Translations under genes and position numbers: made by a program | Shown: positions 49,641 through 62,309 of the stretch, one piece after another | How the letters are laid out: the number at the start of each line of letters is the position of its first letter | How positions within the stretch are numbered: the first letter of the stretch is position 1 | DNA from: Cyanidioschyzon merolae | Taxonomy: Eukaryota | DNA length: 64,000 nt | Reading direction: 5' to 3' (one strand) | Assembly: GCA_000091205.1 (NCBI GenBank) | Contig: AP006488.2 | Notes under the pieces: model-generated | Told to the model about the DNA's origin: nothing | The model's database searches: none | The model's input: the letters and a program-made list of their open reading frames with translations, nothing else

Positions 49641-51860
49641 ACAGAGTGCGCTCCACGCAGCGCTCGAGCTAGAACCGCATTTGGGTTTTCTAGTCAGTTT
49701 GATACTGTTTGACACCTGCTTTGTGGATGTACCACTCGCAGACTGGGCACAGCAATGCGTCAACAAGTTCGAGGAAGCGCGTGCGCGAAGCTCTGATCCG
49801 ACGATCAGACCATTTTTGCATCCTCTGTCCAGAGCGTCAGCCGCTGCATGAGGGTATTATGGAAGGATTCCAGTGGAATGTGCACAGCTGGCTGCCCTGC
49901 GTCCGGAACACCCACAAATGTTTGTTTCATGATGTGCATCAAAGCGAGAGAAGCTCGACGAGCCTCCCTCGGGCCGGGAGTTCGACTACTCCGTATGGCG
50001 TCCTGCCTCGCGCTCTATGGAAGATTTCATCAATGAATACATTGCATGTGGGAGACGATGACACCCGTCTCGGATAGTTCTTTCTGCTCCGATTGTTTAA
50101 CTTGCTGTTCCATCTCGTCCTCTTTTGAGCTGGACTTTGCTCTTCTTAGTCTCGTAGGTTCTTCTCCTTCTCATCGTTAGCCTTGCCCTGTACGTGGTAG
50201 CGTAGCACGCATGTGGTTGCTATAATCTGTAACCATTGTTCTTGCGGACTCTGGAGTTCTGGGTAGACACTGATGCTGAAAAAAAGCCTTTTCTCTCTAT
50301 GAATCTACTAGTTTATATCCCTTTTCATAGTGTTATCCGTTGCGAGTACGCCCACCGGCATATGCGCTCGTTTCTGCTCCTTCTCCTCGCACGAGAAGCG
50401 GAGCAGCGCAGCAATCTAGATGTGGTGATCGTCGAGAACAACTTGTATATACATTGCGGTTTCACGGATGCACACGACTTTAATGCTGTTCAGTGAGCGT
50501 CGAAATGGCGCTCGACAACTGGAAAGGCACCATCGACAGGATTGATCCAGGGGCACGGGCTGGCGCGCAGAGACGCTCAGAATCAGCCTCAGCTGCGCAC
50601 ACGATGGCCTATTGAGCGTGGCAGAACTGGGCGTTGTTGAAGATCAGGACAGTTATATGTTAGGAGCATTCGCCACGAACATTTCTTCGACCAAGGATGG
50701 GGTGTTTAAGTATCCTTTATTTTTCCGATATGTAGATAGCCATACGACAGCGTCGCCGCTATGGCTAAGGTTGTCGTCATTCTCGCCTGTCACGTCTTTC
50801 CGAACAGCGGCTTGCCTCACATTGAAGGACCGCCGAGTTCTACTATCCATCCCGAGTGAAGCCATATCGAGTGAGACGAACAGCCGCTTCTGCTTTCACA
50901 AGCGTTCGCATCTCAGAGCGTCATTGAAAGCATTTTGTTCAACGCGCGCTTGCCTTCTAGATAAGCGTGCAATGTACTCGCCCACTTTGTACACCGTTCG
51001 TGTCAACGGTAACAAATCTTGGAATCCTGCGACTTCTTGAGATATTCTTCTTCGAGAGCATATGAAATGCAATGGATTGATGCGTGGATAGTCGTACTAG
51101 TAGCGTAAAACAAGTTCTTCCCTGGGTACACGTCGTTCAGGAGAGGAACTACGCCAAGCTTGGCGCTTATCCACCTGCTGACCCTGGAGCAACTGATTTG
51201 TTCGAGTAGGACCTTTTACCCATGTTCTCGGTGACGGCATCATGTTTTTCTTCGACTATTCTCTATTGTAAAAAGGCAGACTCCTTTTGTTGTGCTACTG
51301 ACAGAAGAACAAACAAAAAAGCGTGCTGCTGCATCTGCTCCAGCGTGCAGTGCTCTGAATCGAACGCTGCTTTGGCGATACCTCTGAACCTCGTCATTCT
51401 GGACACAATACATGCAACGCGGCGGCATCGACAGTGCCCGAGCGTTTCATGCACAGAACTAGACAATCCAGCACGGATTGTTGCCCTAGGCAACGTCGAG
51501 CACATATGTCCATTATAAAACCAATATGTTCAGCATCAGGAGCGTGCTCCTAGCGGCGCCTCATTTCGCCATCGATGGTGGCGGAGACGCTCGCACGGGC
51601 AATGACGTGCGCGCTCACGTCGCAAAGCCAGCGCATCGCGCTGCGTGAGCGTTCAAAACGTGAAACTACTCCGGTGTGTGAACTGACTCGTGTGCAGGGC
51701 GTGATCCCACTTCGTCCTTGTTCATCAGTTGGTTGCAGTGACATCTTTGTGTTTGTGGCGAAGAATTTGGCAGATCTGCTCGGTCTCTGAACTTGAAACC
51801 TTGTACTGCAGGAACGCACCGAAGACACCGCTTGGTGACGCATTGTGCTGGTGGTTTTTC

Positions 51861-54179
51861 ATGGAGGTACAACAACGTCTAGCATTTGTGGGATCTGTGG
51901 CAAGCAAGCAGTCGACTTGGACACCGTGCCAAACCGACGCCTTGAAAGCGTTGAACCAGTGCACGTGTGCACAGCTGCAGACGTCGCGGAGGCGTGCTGC
52001 ACGGACGCGTTCTCGTGCCGCATTACTGCGCTGTGCTGCTGACGATGGGTCGCTTGGAGAGTCCCACTCTGTCGAGTATACGAGCGCGGCACCGCTGAGC
52101 ACGCCTCTTCTGGATGCAGTGCGCTTCCCCGCGGATATGCGCCAGTTCACCGTGGGTGAAGTGAAACAGCTGGCGCACGAACTGCGCTGGGAACTCTTGC
52201 GTGCAGTGAGCAAGACTGGTGGACACCTCGGCGCCTCGCTTGGTGTCGTAGAACTGACGGTAGCGCTACACTACGTATTCAATACCCCGGAGGACGCGAT
52301 CGTCTGGGACGTCAGCCACCAAACGTATCCGCACAAGATTCTGACCGGCCGGCGTCATCGTATGCACACTCTGCGCAAAAGCGGAGGTATAAGCGGTTTC
52401 ACTAGAAGAGTCGAAAGCGAATACGATGTTTTTGGCGCTGGCCATTCGTCGACTTCTATCTCGGCGGCTTTGGGTCTAGCGATAGGACGCGATCTCGCAG
52501 GAAAGAAACAACATGTGATTGCCGTTATCGGAGACGGCGCGCTTACCGGAGGCATGGCCTACGAAGCAATGAACAACGCTGGGTACTTGAACTCGCGGAT
52601 CATTGTCATTCTGAATGACAACGGCCAGGTGAGCCTTCCGACGGGCACCAAGTCCGCTGCAGGCACCGGACCAGCTGGGGCGCTCAGTGGCTATATGTCG
52701 CGCTTGTTAACGAGCAAGGAGTTCCAGGACGTTCGCGCTATTGCAAAAGAGTTTTCTCGTCTGTTTCCGGATCCGCTGCAGCGCACTGCAGCCCAGCTTG
52801 ACGAGTATGCGCGAGCCTGGGTTGCACAGGGAGCTGGCGGCAACCGCGCGACGCTCTTTGAAGAACTGGGCTTTTACTACGTCGGGCCTGTCGACGGCCA
52901 CGACGTTGAGGTTCTCGTCAATGTCCTGAAGAATATTCGAGATGCACCCGGGAACAAACCGATTTTTCTTCACGTGAAGACGGAGAAGGGGCGAGGCTAC
53001 CCTCCCGCCGAATCCGCTCTAGACAAGTATCACGGTGTATCCAAATTCGACCTAGCCACTGGAAAGCAGATGGTTCCGATGCATTCACCTCCGAGCTACA
53101 CATCCGTTTTCGCCAAAGCGCTTATCGCAGAGGCCGATGAAGATCGCCGCATTGTTGGCATCACCGCAGCAATGCCGGGCGGTACCGGCATGGGCGCCTT
53201 TGGAGAGGCTCACCCTACGCGTTGTTTCGATGTAGGTATCGCTGAACAACATGCGGTAACTTTTGCCGCAGGCCTGAGTATCCAGGGTTTCAAACCGTTT
53301 TGCTGCATTTACTCGACCTTCTTGCAGCGTGGCTATGATCAGGTTATTCACGATGTTGCATTGCAAAAGCTACCAGTGCGATTCATTCTGGACAGGGCGG
53401 GCCTTGTTGGGAATGATGGGCCCACACATCATGGAACCTTTGACCTGGCATATTTGGGTTGCATTCCAAACATGATGATTATGGCCCCCAGTGATGAAAT
53501 CGAGTTGGTGCATATGGTGGCGACGGCGCGGGCCTACGATGAGGGCCCCTGTGCATTACGGTATCCACGTGGTACCGCTGTTGGCCTCGATGTTCTCCGT
53601 GAACACTTCGGGTACGATCTGGAGGCCATTCCAGTGCGGGGTAAGGTGCTTCCGATCGGCAAAGGCCGAATCATCCGCGAAAAGAAGTCCGCCAGTACCG
53701 CCGATGGCGCCGAAATCCCACGAGGCGTCGCAATCCTTTCACTCGGGACGCGTCTGCTCGAAGCGGTACACGCTGCAGGGCAGCTGGAGGCTCTGGATGT
53801 TGCATGTACAGTTGCAGATGCTCGATTTATGAAACCGCTTGATACGGATCTGATCCGTCGCCTCATTCGGAATCACGAAGTGCTGATCACCATTGAGGAG
53901 GGCAGCATCGGAGGATTCGGCGATCACGTGCTCCACTACGCTGCTCTGAACGGACTTTTGGACGAAGGCAAATGCAAAGTGCGACCCATGGTCATTCCCG
54001 ACGTCTTCATCGAAACAGGAACACAAGCTGAACAATATGAGGAAGCCGGACTGACAGCCGCACACATCGTGCGTACGGCTCTGCAACTGGTTGGAAAAGG
54101 CAATCTGCGCTTTGGTGGAAACGGAGTGGCGAATCCATCAGCGGGCACCGCGGCTGCCTCCCGCAACGCGCGGACTTGA
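51861..54179 (+). CDS. DXS: 1-deoxy-D-xylulose-5-phosphate synthase (MEP pathway) with N-terminal presequence
   Basis: The listed ORF starts at TTG 51729; the first ATG is 51861 (MEVQQRLAF). Conserved DXS blocks are [39 protein letters not shown], the TPP motif [19 protein letters not shown]...[28 protein letters not shown] and [15 protein letters not shown]. About 85 aa precede the conserved core. Confidence 0.95.
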
Positions 54180-55653: not shown

Positions 55654-55718
55654 CACTTTCTTCCAAGTGCTCGTGCCGTGTCGGCCGGCTCGTGGTCATC
55701 ATCTTGCACATCTTCTGT

Positions 55719-57968
55719 ATGGAGTTACCGAGCGTCCAAGAAAATGCGGTAGCGACGCTGGGCGGACGGCGGAACTCCAAGTCGCGAAAGAGCCGTAGGG
55801 TGCCGAGTCGAGCACCGTCGACATCCTCGCTGTCAGATGAGGCGAGCTCGCTACGATCCACAGAGCGTAGACGAGGGCGGACTAGCCTTGGATCGCCGTC
55901 ACTATCAACGTTAGATCATGATGAGCAGGGTCCTGTGCGAGCGGGAATCGATGTTACGCTCAAACAAAGTGCGACGACGAACTCGGGCGATAGAGTTCAT
56001 TTTGGTGTACCGCCAGCGTCGCCGATGACGGAGCGAGCCGCATCCCAGGTACAGGGCGCCTCCAATGCGCATGGAGAAGAACTACGTCCTACACAACGCT
56101 ATGGGACCGGTCTTATATCAGGAGAGCGGTTTCGAGTCCCGGTAACACGAACCATGGCGGCTCTCGTTTTCGATGTTAGAAACTGGGGTCCTCTGGAGTT
56201 CGTGGTGCACGCCTTGTTCCTGGTCCAGCTCTTTGCGACATTCTGGGTGTTTCCACGACTGGACCCACTGTGCACCGATGCGTTGAGCGGCTCCTGCGCG
56301 GCTGGTGTCATTTCCTCTGTGATGCTCTTTCTCAGTTGGCGACTGGCGTACAACGTAGGGCTTGGCTGGCTCTTGCGTCGGCAGTCCCGTCACGCCGCTA
56401 TTACCCATTGGTGGGCAGGTCTGTCCCCGAAATGGAAGCGAATTATTCGCAGATGCTTTCGCAGTTCGCTCTTGCCGGATGAACGGGTAGCGTCGCGAGC
56501 TCGCTACGGACCATCGCCACCTTGGCCAGTTGATTTCGAAGCCTGGGCCGCTTTCCGATGTCTTGCGACCATCGTCTTGGCAAATGACGGCTGGTCGTAC
56601 CTGTTGCTCTGCTGCAGAGTGTTCCACTTTCCATGGATAGAGCGCTGGTATGCGAGGCCGGATGTCTGGCTCTGCTACCTCTTGGGCGTTGCGCTGATCG
56701 CATTTTCGCTCTGGGCAAAAGCGAGTGCGCATCGCGTGGTGGGTGACTTTGCCTGGTATTGGGGCGACTTTTTTTTCATCATGGAAGGTGAGCTCACTTT
56801 CGATGGCGTGTTTGAGCTTTTCCCCCATCCAATGTACACTGTCGGATATACTGCATACTACGGCTTTAGTTTGATATGCCGCTCGTACACTTTGCTGATT
56901 GCGTCGCTCATCGCACACATGTCTCAGCTGCTCTTTCTCATGAGCGTGGAGGAGCCCCATATCGAAAAAACATACGGCCCGAGCGAGAGGGCGCAGAGCC
57001 CCTCCTGTGCTGCAGAAAGCGTCTCTCCTGAGCGCATCTGCACCGTGTCATGCTGTTCCCGAAACAAAATCGAAAAGGAAGCTGTGGTCCTGGCGAATCT
57101 GGACCCGTTTCGAAATTCGGATCTGTCTCTGCTCATTATGGCGTGTATGACAATCTTTACGCCGGCCCTATCGGGATGGACGCTTACATCTCGATACTAT
57201 GCAATGCAGGTCGTTGGCTGGATGGTCTTCCATTGGTGTGGTCTCGGCACTGTACTCTATCTCCAGAGTACTCGGCGCTGGTGGACACGGCATTTCGAAC
57301 AGCGAGGCCACTGTGCGGCTGAAGCCTTTCGCCAATGGCAGCGGACGTTCAACATGAGCCTTGTGATGAACCACCTGGTATTTGTGATGCTCGCGCTTCA
57401 CGACGCCCAACCGATCCGAATTCCTTCCGTTTGGTCGCTGGTTTCCGGTCGCACTGCGGCGCTCGTCGGCGGGTCTGCTCTTATCATCGTGGGAGCGTCG
57501 TCTTCTATTTCCGCATATCGGATTCTCGGAGATTACGGCTGGTTCTACGGAGACTTTTTTCTCGAACCGTGTGCGTTGTCGAACCATCAGGGGCCTTGGA
57601 AACGACCCGCATCGGTTGAAGCTTCTCTGCGCCCGTCATACGCGGGTATTTATCGGTATTTGAACAACCCTGATTGTGTGCTGGGCTACCTCTGGATGTA
57701 CGGGCTGAGTCTAGCCACTGAAAGCTGGCGGGCGTTCTGGTTCGCGGTTTGTTCCCAAGCGCTTCATGTCTTGTTCTTGGTGCTGGTAGAGGTCCCGCAT
57801 ATGCACCGCACGTATGGGCCGCACTGTCGACGTGCAGCAGCGCTGGAACTGCTCTTACGTCGCCAAGTGCAACGCATTCGTGACCAGCCGCTGCTTCGGG
57901 AGGTAACTTGCAAAGTTGAAGCGCGCGTTGATGAGCTGCGCGGCCGGCTCCTGCACAAGTATCGATAG
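55719..57968 (+). CDS. CHO2: Phosphatidylethanolamine N-methyltransferase, Cho2-type (two PEMT-like domains)
   Basis: The listed ORF starts at GTG 55692; the first ATG is 55719 (MELPSVQEN). It is polytopic and has two PEMT-type repeats: DFFFIMEGELTFDGVFELFPHPMYTVGYTAYYG...EEPHIEKTYG and GDFFLEP...YAGIYRYLNNPDCVLGYLWMYG...VEVPHMHRTYG. Confidence 0.85.
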   Translation: MELPSVQENAVATLGGRRNSKSRKSRRVPSRAPSTSSLSDEASSLRSTERRRGRTSLGSPSLSTLDHDEQGPVRAGIDVTLKQSATTNSGDRVHFGVPPASPMTERAASQVQGASNAHGEELRPTQRYGTGLISGERFRVPVTRTMAALVFDVRNWGPLEFVVHALFLVQLFATFWVFPRLDPLCTDALSGSCAAGVISSVMLFLSWRLAYNVGLGWLLRRQSRHAAITHWWAGLSPKWKRIIRRCFRSSLLPDERVASRARYGPSPPWPVDFEAWAAFRCLATIVLANDGWSYLLLCCRVFHFPWIERWYARPDVWLCYLLGVALIAFSLWAKASAHRVVGDFAWYWGDFFFIMEGELTFDGVFELFPHPMYTVGYTAYYGFSLICRSYTLLIASLIAHMSQLLFLMSVEEPHIEKTYGPSERAQSPSCAAESVSPERICTVSCCSRNKIEKEAVVLANLDPFRNSDLSLLIMACMTIFTPALSGWTLTSRYYAMQVVGWMVFHWCGLGTVLYLQSTRRWWTRHFEQRGHCAAEAFRQWQRTFNMSLVMNHLVFVMLALHDAQPIRIPSVWSLVSGRTAALVGGSALIIVGASSSISAYRILGDYGWFYGDFFLEPCALSNHQGPWKRPASVEASLRPSYAGIYRYLNNPDCVLGYLWMYGLSLATESWRAFWFAVCSQALHVLFLVLVEVPHMHRTYGPHCRRAAALELLLRRQVQRIRDQPLLREVTCKVEARVDELRGRLLHKYR

Positions 57969-60695: not shown

Positions 60696-62003
60696 TCACT
60701 CGGAGTTGGGCATGGACCGCTTCAGGTGGCTGCGCAAAATGGTCAAATGCTCTTCTTTGATTTTCTCCGGCGCCAGATGGGAACGCCACTCACGCGCTAA
60801 CAACGAGCGTAGAATCAGGAGCTCATCCACGAAATCGCTCGGCATGAAACCGACGCTCTTTTCGGTGCGTGCACCGACACCTTCGCGTTCGACGACTCGA
60901 TCATGGTTTTCGACAAAGAATTTCTGGCCTTCGCAGCGGACGTTGCCAAGACGCAAAAGAGAACGGATAAAGTCGTCGCCGTCCCCAATTTCCTCTTCCC
61001 AACGCGGCCACTTGCTCAACCATTCATGTTCAGCATGACGTCCTTCGAAACGTAGACGATTCAGGAAACGCACAGTCGCTCTTCTCGTCAAGAGCGCCTT
61101 CACGTAGCGATAGTTGTGGTACCGGAGCGGGGACTCATCCGTCGTAAAATCGTCATGGTCTAGAATACGCTGGGCCTGATGCGCCTGACCACTCTGTTCA
61201 TGTACCAGTTCGGAGAGTATTTCACTGTTTTCAACGCTCACCAACCCGAGATCCCGACGCAACTCTTCCGCAATGGACTCGCGGGCCGCCATGATACGCT
61301 GCGCGTAGCGAAACGGTTCCAGAGTAAAAGTGAACTCGCGTCGAATACGCGTCCCGACAACCATCGTGTGCATCTCCGAGGGCGCCGACATCATCCCACT
61401 CAGGTACTCAACAGTGTTCCGAAGAAAATGGTATGCTTGCTCGTGACGTCGAGAACCAATGGAGGCTCCACCGAACCACTTCCCATAGTCGTCAAAATCC
61501 AGCAGCCAACGCCGCGCTGGCTCGTCCCGAAACTCCGTGAGATAGTAGATGATCGTTCGCACTGCTCGGTCTGTGGCAAAGTCTCGGATCAGGTTTGCGT
61601 CAGTATCGTGCGCTGGCGTACTGGCACAGATAGATCGAACACGCTGCCCGGAGGTACGCGCGCCACCAAACGAAACGCTGGCGTTCTTGTGCTCCTCCAG
61701 CGTTCCCTGGTCTACCGCGTAGCCCTGCTCTTGCCGCCCGTTTCCTTCGTTGGTGGATTCACGTGCTCCCTCTGAGTCCGAGCCCTCACCAAGCACACAC
61801 TTTAGTGAATGGATCTGCTCCGCGCACGGCTGCCGTCCAAGTCGTGTTCCGGTTCGTCCAGCTGGGATAGGTCTCCAGTGACGCCGTCGCCCAGTGCTGG
61901 GGCAGCGCACAGCGCCCGTTGACGTTGCCACCCACGCGCACCGCGAGAAAGCGCCCCGAGAAAACCGCAATGGAGATGCGCTAAACTGAACAATATCCGT
62001 CAT
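60696..62003 (-). CDS. Protein with two tandem RbcX-like domains and an N-terminal presequence-like region
   Basis: ATG at 62003. Half 1 is DRAVRTIIYYLTEFRDEPARRWLLDF...EPFRYAQRIMAARESIAEELRRDL. Half 2 is YRYVKALLTRRATVRFLNRLRFEGRHAEHEWLSKW...GDGDDFIRSLL...SDFVDELLILRSLLAREWRSHL. Both follow the RbcX pattern (Y.AVR.vl.QL.e.NP....WL..F...dG..fi..Ll...p.LA.RIm.vRe.iAee). Confidence 0.6.
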   Translation of the reverse strand: MTDIVQFSASPLRFSRGAFSRCAWVATSTGAVRCPSTGRRRHWRPIPAGRTGTRLGRQPCAEQIHSLKCVLGEGSDSEGARESTNEGNGRQEQGYAVDQGTLEEHKNASVSFGGARTSGQRVRSICASTPAHDTDANLIRDFATDRAVRTIIYYLTEFRDEPARRWLLDFDDYGKWFGGASIGSRRHEQAYHFLRNTVEYLSGMMSAPSEMHTMVVGTRIRREFTFTLEPFRYAQRIMAARESIAEELRRDLGLVSVENSEILSELVHEQSGQAHQAQRILDHDDFTTDESPLRYHNYRYVKALLTRRATVRFLNRLRFEGRHAEHEWLSKWPRWEEEIGDGDDFIRSLLRLGNVRCEGQKFFVENHDRVVEREGVGARTEKSVGFMPSDFVDELLILRSLLAREWRSHLAPEKIKEEHLTILRSHLKRSMPNSE

Positions 62004-62309
62004 GACTTTGAACTAAAAAACAATGAGAAAGCGTTGATCGTAGAAAACACACAGACGCGAAACCTCCGCTCCAGCGAAATAACTGTCGCGAATATATACC
62101 CAAAATCCTGGTACGTTTATCTGCTGGCGCTGGTGCTGCTGGTGCTTGTGCTGCCAACGGATTTTGGCGCTGCTGAATGCACGCGCGCCAAGGCGCCTCG
62201 CCCACGCGCAGATCTGAACGCTGCGGTTGAAATGCCCGGCGCAGCAGCAGCGCAGATTCGAGCATTGCGCGGGAAAGCTGCAGAGCGCGCGCGCGCGCGC
62301 AAGCATCGT

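Follow-up and report, generated by a model that had tools for sequence, protein, structure and literature searches.

A tandem RbcX-like protein in the red alga Cyanidioschyzon merolae, a candidate assembly chaperone for red-type Rubisco

Does a red alga, whose Rubisco is of form ID, encode a descendant of the assembly chaperone RbcX? After the chaperonin has released the folded Rubisco large subunit (RbcL), RbcX captures it and keeps the antiparallel RbcL dimer competent for assembly, until RbcX is displaced by the small subunit (RbcS). According to reviews, RbcX and other assembly factors of the green lineage are without homologues in organisms with red-type Rubisco (PMC9833100). The question is raised by a 64,000-nucleotide stretch of the Cyanidioschyzon merolae genome (assembly GCA_000091205.1, contig AP006488.2; the whole stretch is called the window here), in which a first-pass annotation, made from the sequence alone, had read one open reading frame (ORF) as a single polypeptide with two consecutive RbcX-like segments and had guessed at a red-lineage host with form ID Rubisco. 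The ORF list of the window contains this 435-codon frame as described, uninterrupted from an ATG start on the minus strand (60696..62003). Along its full length, its product matches CYME_CMF092C of C. merolae 10D (CMF092C here) with 100% identity, so the guess about the host was correct. CYME_CMF092C is annotated as a “hypothetical protein” and has no precomputed Pfam domain. Here we show, from homology and predicted fold, that CMF092C is a member of the RbcX superfamily.

The relationship becomes visible at the level of the family. By itself, CMF092C stays under both the Pfam and the NCBIfam thresholds for RbcX: residues 134 to 172 align to positions 10 to 46 of the Pfam model (PF02341) with an E value of 9.6e-4 and 19.8 bits, residues 119 to 435 reach 21.8 bits against a gathering cutoff of 27 bits, and the NCBIfam model of cyanobacterial RbcX (NF047598) gives 18.5 bits against a cutoff of 150 bits. 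A phmmer search of the PDB with CMF092C found no match, and a profile of four Cyanidiales sequences found no RbcX there, returning only a nanobody and ribosomal protein S15 at E values above 1. We used this four-sequence profile, covering residues 119 to 435, as the query of an exhaustive HMMER search against 1.84 billion cluster representatives. This yielded 154 proteins at an E value of ≤1e-3, 45 of them at ≤1e-10; most are 300 to 500 amino acids long, and many align to both halves of the query. Word-indexed protein searches returned only three further Cyanidiales proteins with CMF092C (from Cyanidiococcus, Cyanidium, and a JGI entry) and only five proteins with an alignment of 59 family members (alignment A3).

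When the 59 members of A3 were scanned singly, 23 matched Pfam RbcX (best E value, 2.8e-15), and no other Pfam family was matched by more than one of them. In a sample of ten members, matches above the cutoff occur in either half, as the first-pass reading required. In half 1, residues 63 to 126 of member P0005 align to profile positions 8 to 64 with 40.1 bits, and P0019 and P0028 also exceed the cutoff in this half. In half 2, residues 213 to 306 of P0006 align to positions 13 to 88 in two stretches with 46.9 bits, and residues 212 to 300 of P0047 align to positions 14 to 97 with 24.6 bits, slightly under the cutoff. Searched against all PDB sequences, the A3 profile retrieved nine distinct RbcX sequences with E values from 6.1e-8 to 3.4e-3 and no sequence other than RbcX at an E value below 1. 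The matches comprise RbcX of Synechocystis (2PY8, 6.1e-8) and Anabaena (2PEO, 1.2e-7), 7XSD (2.1e-7), the Synechococcus 7002 variants 2PEJ, 2PEM, 2PEK, and 2PEI, Thermosynechococcus 3Q20, and, as the weakest, Arabidopsis AtRbcX2 (4GR6, 3.4e-3). In these alignments, half 2 of the family covers almost the whole RbcX chain, and the last helix of half 1 aligns to RbcX helix α4. Profile-profile comparison agrees: in local hhalign runs against a two-sequence RbcX alignment taken from the PDB search output, half 1 scored a probability of 96.4% (E value, 1.1e-9; 92 columns) and half 2 scored 94.1% (1.3e-7; 91 columns), and with reversed and column-shuffled controls the probability was at most 1.1% and the E value never below 0.05. 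At the level of sequence profiles, the homology of each half to RbcX can thus be regarded as established.

The two halves are also related to each other. With BLASTP, the halves of CMF092C did not match each other significantly (E value, 3.7), whereas hhalign on the 59-sequence alignment matched the halves end to end over 120 to 127 columns, with probabilities of 99.1 to 99.3% and E values of 1.8e-19 to 6.6e-19. Reversed and column-shuffled controls did not exceed a probability of 0.7% or fall below an E value of 0.077. Given these scores and their negative controls, both the RbcX ancestry of each half and the internal duplication are established, and the two consecutive segments seen at first pass represent a repeat far above chance. 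The motif pairs on which that reading had been based are present as well, with TDRAVRTIIYYLTEFRDEPARRWLLDF and EPFRYAQRIMAARESIAEE in half 1 and TRRATVRFLNRLRFEGRHAEHEWLSKW and PSDFVDELLILRSLLAREW in half 2. They are preceded by the Ser/Arg/Gly-rich N terminus that had been noticed, whose first 60 residues contain 11 Lys and Arg, a single Asp or Glu, 12 Ser and Thr, and 6 Gly.

We then modeled residues 119 to 435 with AlphaFold2 (model numbering plus 118 gives the CMF092C numbering). With the four-sequence alignment the model was unusable (predicted local distance difference test [pLDDT], 47), and a confident one was obtained solely with the 59-sequence alignment; it has a mean pLDDT of 88.4, a predicted template modeling (pTM) score of 0.87, and 222 of 317 residues at a pLDDT of ≥90. 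Each half consists, in this order, of a long helix, a second helix, a short helix, a β-hairpin, and a long helix broken in two. The helices span residues 132 to 157, 161 to 178, 197 to 206, 230 to 252, and 255 to 271 in domain 1 and residues 294 to 319, 323 to 331, 335 to 351, 389 to 409, and 412 to 430 in domain 2, with α4 broken at residues 252/255 and 409/412, respectively. In domain 1, α4 of the PDB RbcX sequences aligns to positions 149 to 212 of the family profile, and the domain 2 stretch matches 2peo_A with an i-E value of 6.5e-6. RbcX of Synechococcus 7002, in the 2007 structure of Saschenbrecker and colleagues, reportedly has its helices at residues 4 to 33 (α1), 35 to 48 (α2), 52 to 63 (α3), and 65 to 107 (α4, kinked). 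Given that the helices of CMF092C map one to one on those of RbcX, the β-hairpin is an insertion at the α3/α4 junction, and the hhalign alignments place a gap in RbcX at this point. The predicted fold is therefore RbcX-like in each half, as proposed at first pass, with helices α1 to α3 and a long kinked α4, but differs from the plain four-helix RbcX by the extra hairpin.

In half 2, the insertion forms a four-stranded sheet in the model; it is longer in Cyanidiales, and about 22 of its columns are gapped in most family members. The loop of the domain 1 hairpin reads PRGGSGNNP[FY]L in ochrophytes (P0019, P0021, P0035, P0179, and P0188), HPKGYFKREF in non-cyanidialean red algae (P0005, P0153, P0155, and P0157), and, in a shorter form, GTRIRREFTF in Cyanidiales. 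An insertion that is absent from RbcX yet strongly conserved suggests that the domain 1 hairpin may serve as a functional surface.

CMF092C is thus one chain with two diverged domains rather than a homodimer of ~15-kDa subunits. In RbcX, the extended α4 of a subunit is buried only in the dimer. Given this, the 22-residue linker, and the pTM score of 0.87, which for a two-domain chain suggests a confidently fixed relative placement of the halves, an intramolecular packing of the two halves as an RbcX-type pseudo-dimer arc is the most likely arrangement. Pro292 and Arg294, at the border of linker and domain 2, are nearly invariant in the family.

Named family members come from three groups of algae. 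The red algae are represented by Cyanidiales, Madagascaria erythrocladioides, Porphyridium aerugineum, Compsopogon caeruleus, and Erythrolobus australicus; the ochrophytes are represented by Chrysoparadoxa australica, the brown alga Choristocarpus tenellus, and the raphidophyte Fibrocapsa japonica; and the haptophytes are represented by Haptolina ericina. All of them fall in lineages with form ID Rubisco and none in lineages with form IB (lineage assignment according to PMC9833100), so among named members the family occurs with form ID instead of the form IB Rubisco with which RbcX is associated. Given its conservation across phyla, we rejected the possibility that the ORF is spurious.

Some members call for comment as gene models. 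P0004 (Cyanidium caldarium CDCA02G0731, 285 amino acids) begins within helix α1 of domain 1 and has no targeting peptide, so it is probably truncated at its N terminus. In P0002 (JGI, 526 amino acids), a 93-residue N-terminal extension has no counterpart in the other homologues, so its start was probably called too far upstream. A subgroup resembling P0034 is rich in Lys, Asn, and Ile, has a length of 400 to 500 amino acids, and diverges at the C-terminal end of domain 2 (“...SR.YYK.I...”). A homologue search seeded with P0034 gave 40 proteins, and the subgroup occurs in large numbers in metagenomes and transcriptomes from the sea; it may be of diatom origin. One gene of this type (L001, 240-1253, on a 2.8-kb contig of GCA_013565615.1) adjoins a PAP_fibrillin (plastoglobule-type) gene.

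The N termini of the family bear on its location. An N-terminal Phe is characteristic of the transit peptides of rhodophytes and glaucophytes. CMF092C (MTDIVQF) shares an early Phe with its red-algal homologues P0005 (MTLAF), P0153 (GFIPVAP), and P0155 (MEVGF). In all five ochrophyte N termini that we read, a hydrophobic signal peptide is followed by Phe at position +1, with small-x-small|Phe junctions (SLA|F, GHA|F, ARG|F, AHA|F, and VVS|F); this arrangement corresponds to the ASAFAP-type motif known from complex red plastids. A plastid location of CMF092C is therefore a well-supported inference from the sequence.

Expression data come from a study of heat priming in which CMF092C was one of four genes that failed to hyperinduce in a mutant of the H3K27 methyltransferase E(z), on which its heat-memory hyperinduction depends (bioRxiv 10.64898/2026.03.31.715551). 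Since hyperinduction fails in the mutant, CMF092C is heat “trainable” in the wild type, and this behavior fits a chaperone.

Taken together, we favor, with a probability of roughly 55%, the reading that CMF092C is a single-chain chaperone of the plastid that derives from RbcX and whose client is probably form ID RbcL. An ancestral rbcX gene from the cyanobacterial endosymbiont would have been duplicated in tandem and fused, giving rise to the nuclear gene CMF092C. The two halves would pack against each other into the arc-shaped unit of the RbcX homodimer, now in one chain and asymmetric, and this unit would bind newly folded form ID RbcL and hold RbcL dimers until RbcS binds. The C-terminal tail of RbcL offers a possible contact. 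In green-type RbcL, the RbcX-binding motif of this tail is EIKFEF (PMC4549274), followed by Glu or Asp; the red-type tails (Galdieria 1BWV; diatoms 5MZ2 and 5N9Z) keep an I-x-F-x-aromatic pattern in the form WKDITFNY, a possible docking motif for CMF092C in place of EIKFEF. This tail might lie in the cleft of CMF092C, with the half 1 corner (E157/R236) on the neighboring subunit, and the role might be enhanced during or after heat stress. Our confidence is highest for the plastid location, followed by the intramolecular arc, the binding of form ID RbcL, and finally the heat-stress role.

Functional residues were compared in the hhalign register, using cyanobacterial RbcX numbering. The equivalents of the RbcX core residues T19, A22, W40, L41, R75, and A79 are conserved in both halves. 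Glu32 corresponds to E157 in half 1 (Glu in 45 of 56 sequences) and to F319 in half 2, which is not conserved (mostly Asp in the family). R75 and E76 are both retained in half 1, while half 2 keeps R75 but not E76. In cyanobacterial RbcX, Tyr17 and Tyr20 on α1 are the aromatic cleft residues by which the EIKFEF tail of RbcL is held; Leu57 and Phe60 are their counterparts in CrRbcX-IIa (PMC4549274). The position of Tyr17 is occupied by F142 in half 1 (Phe or Leu in the family) and by L304 in half 2 (Leu in the family). The Tyr20 position of the cleft is D145 in half 1 (Gln or Arg in the family) and R307, at a variable position, in half 2, and that of Gln29 is Y154 in half 1 (Tyr in 49 of 55 sequences) and R316 in half 2 (variable, Glu or Arg). 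Arg70 corresponds to R236 in half 1 (Arg in 30, Gln in 15, and Lys in 7 of 59 sequences) and to the variable E394 in half 2, where the Arg is lost. In CrRbcX-IIa, the residues equivalent to Gln29 and Arg70, Gln69 and Arg118, are functionally critical corner residues (PMC4549274); of this pair, Gln29 is replaced in both halves of CMF092C, and Arg70 is kept in half 1 only. Judging from the aligned residues, position 17 in the family is compatible with RbcX, position 20 and that of the critical Gln differ from it, and the two halves are markedly asymmetric.

Several of these and other observations weigh against the reading as an RbcL chaperone. With Gln29 and Tyr20 replaced and Arg70 lost in half 2, the canonical RbcX binding mode may be gone from the family. 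Rubisco is a plausible client, but the argument for it is one of homology. The βE-βF hairpin of red-type RbcS has been argued to be a built-in RbcX substitute (PMC9833100), in which case the need for RbcX would be weaker. The distribution is that of the named members, most of the 154 representatives coming from metagenome or transcriptome contigs, and the family may also occur in lineages with form II Rubisco (dinoflagellates) or in non-photosynthetic ones. A scan for the heat shock element GAAnnTTCnnGAA with one mismatch gave 16 matches versus 18.5 expected, none of them in the proximal promoter. To these come the subthreshold scores of CMF092C as a single sequence and a Foldseek search of the PDB with the AlphaFold2 model, which gave nothing below an E value of 2.

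The main rival, possible but in our judgment unlikely, is that the RbcX fold was kept while its job changed. The rbcX gene, orphaned when form IB was replaced by the proteobacterial form ID Rubisco, would have been duplicated and fused, would have gained its hairpins, and might now serve a new plastid client, e.g., by acting as a general heat stress holdase or by helping to assemble another complex. The replaced Gln29 and Tyr20 in both halves and the lost Arg70 in half 2 (PMC4549274) are in line with such a change, as are the conserved novelties that RbcX lacks (the β-hairpins, the position of Y154, and the D-x-S/T-P-L-R linker), the stated dispensability of RbcX given red-type RbcS (PMC9833100), and the heat hyperinduction, which would fit a general stress role. 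However, RbcX is the sole relative detectable by sequence and fold, the named members are confined to lineages with form ID Rubisco, and an EIKFEF-like motif is kept in the red RbcL tail. To our knowledge, the RbcX fold has no function outside Rubisco biogenesis. Moreover, CrRbcX-IIa is an authentic RbcX whose cleft is lined by Leu57 and Phe60 in place of both tyrosines, so the cleft varies among true RbcX proteins (PMC4549274).

Another alternative concerns the packing: the halves could pair between chains, generating domain-swapped dimers or higher oligomers, and the protein would then be a bivalent cross-linker of two RbcX-type sites instead of an RbcX dimer in one chain. The 22-residue linker with its lower model confidence would permit this, and RbcX-IIa is able to form tetramers (PMC4549274), but the pTM score of the 317-residue monomer model implies a fixed placement within one chain, and fused domains that dimerize in the ancestor would most simply pair intramolecularly, which makes this arrangement improbable. 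That the resemblance to RbcX is an artefact of helical composition in an unrelated, lineage-specific protein could be argued from the subthreshold scores of CMF092C, the PDB searches with one and four sequences that found no RbcX, and the Foldseek result, but it is effectively refuted by family members above the Pfam gathering score (40 to 47 bits; best E value, 2.8e-15), a PDB profile search that gives RbcX exclusively, and hhalign probabilities of 94 to 96% against controls of at most 1.1%.

An RbcX-derived family that occurs in red algae and, among algae with plastids of red origin, in ochrophytes and one haptophyte contradicts the statement that organisms with red-type Rubisco have no RbcX homologue. 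It also calls into question the argument, based mainly on the RbcS hairpin, that they need none. The family was overlooked because its members are diverged tandem fusions that mostly fall under profile thresholds, although better-scoring members may already be tagged in domain databases. In the full-text literature outside most subscription journals, we found no report that a red alga, a diatom, or any other alga of the red lineage has an RbcX-like protein, nor of a tandem RbcX. The “RbcX-like” protein of a 2026 seaweed preprint belongs to the green alga Ulva. RbcX descendants across the red lineage would surprise a specialist in Rubisco biogenesis. In evolutionary terms, it seems that a chaperone of cyanobacterial, endosymbiotic origin persisted after its first client had given way to a proteobacterial Rubisco, and that it changed from a homodimer to a single-chain, asymmetric pseudo-dimer.

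In reviews, the lack of knowledge about which chaperones form ID Rubisco needs has been named as the main obstacle to its expression in plants (PMC9833100; PMC6508576), and CMF092C is a concrete candidate helper for the assembly of the red-type enzyme. It is doubtful that the tandem family is a dedicated form ID Rubisco assembly chaperone, that is, an asymmetric pseudo-dimer that coevolved with the horizontally acquired red-type RbcL. If it were, its absence from the host cells would be one cause of the failed assembly of red-algal and diatom Rubiscos in tobacco chloroplasts and Escherichia coli, and its coexpression could unlock the transfer of high-specificity red Rubiscos into crops. Given that C. 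merolae permits knockouts by homologous recombination and that Rubisco assembly platforms exist in E. coli and tobacco, the question of how red Rubisco is assembled becomes accessible to direct experiment.

The features of the locus are collected in Table 1. With a G+C content of ~54%, few long ORFs, and no tRNA gene found in it, the window fits a eukaryotic nuclear genome. The two neighbors listed in the table are unrelated to the RbcX-like protein. An alternating (GC)8 tract lies at 62285-62300 in the window, ~285 bp 5′ of the CMF092C start codon in the presumed promoter region.

Table 1. Features of CMF092C and its neighbors, with positions in the window
Feature	Position	Strand	Description and basis
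CMF092C coding sequence	60696..62003	-	435 amino acids plus stop, intron not required; ORF list, 100% identity to CYME_CMF092C
Putative transit peptide, residues 1-60	61824..62003	-	Basic, hydroxylated, nearly acid-free, early Phe (MTDIVQF); composition
Acidic Gly-rich spacer, residues 61-118	61650..61823	-	Poorly conserved; Cyanidiales alignment little conserved before residue ~119; composition
RbcX-like domain 1, residues 132-271	61191..61610	-	α1, α2, α3, split α4; Pfam, PDB profile, hhalign, model
Domain 1 β-hairpin between α3 and α4, residues 210-228	61320..61376	-	DSSP strands 92-98 and 104-110 (model numbering); pLDDT >90
Interdomain linker, residues 272-293	61125..61190	-	Ends in conserved D-x-(S/T)-P-L-R; no regular secondary structure, lower pLDDT
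RbcX-like domain 2, residues 294-430	60714..61124	-	Family-profile positions 219-346 to RbcX residues 12-144; hhalign; model
Domain 2 β-sheet insertion between α3 and α4, residues 355-386	60846..60941	-	DSSP strands 237-268 (model numbering)
1-Deoxy-D-xylulose-5-phosphate synthase, neighbor	51729-54179	+	DXP_synthase_N, E value 2.4e-104
758-amino-acid neighbor with two phospholipid methyltransferase (PEMT) stretches	55692-57968	+	E value 2.2e-44

Among known systems, the closest are the cyanobacterial RbcX-I proteins (2PEM, 2PEO, and 2PY8), with which the CMF092C family shares L-T-x-x-A-(V/L)-R and W-L-x-x-F, the motif (I/L)-A-x-R-I-(M/L)-x-x-R-E-x-(I/L)-A-x-E, and a broken α4 helix, the counterpart of the α4 kink generally known from RbcX. 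While cyanobacterial RbcX is a homodimerizing subunit of ~15 kDa, mature CMF092C is one chain of ~35 kDa that contains two copies, diverged from each other, with a β-hairpin before α4 in each copy and with the equivalents of Tyr17, Tyr20, and Gln29 replaced. It is, moreover, a nuclear gene with a putative targeting peptide outside any rbcLXS operon, in a host with form ID rather than form IB Rubisco. The subthreshold score, the absence of a 15-kDa homodimer, the loss of the critical Gln, and the absence of form IB Rubisco set CMF092C apart from RbcX proper.

Like the eukaryotic RbcX-II proteins (AtRbcX1, 4GR2; CrRbcX-IIa, 5BS2) and RbcX-I (AtRbcX2, 4GR6), CMF092C is a nuclear rbcX descendant that is, in its case probably, targeted to the plastid. 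With CrRbcX-IIa (Leu57), the family shares an aliphatic or aromatic residue other than Tyr at the position of Tyr17, but CrRbcX-IIa retains both the critical Q69 and R118 (PMC4549274). The eukaryotic RbcX proteins also differ in that they belong to the green lineage, serve its form IB Rubisco, and are homodimers with a single domain per subunit, with neither β-hairpin nor tandem fusion. Raf1, a post-chaperonin chaperone that brackets antiparallel RbcL dimers and is displaced by RbcS, offers a functional analogy only, being unrelated to CMF092C in fold and sequence; it was not detected in this analysis and has been reported absent from red-type organisms. The βE-βF hairpin of red-type RbcS, finally, has been proposed to do the assembly job of RbcX (both reports, PMC9833100), but it is an element of the small subunit and not a separate chaperone, as CMF092C would be.

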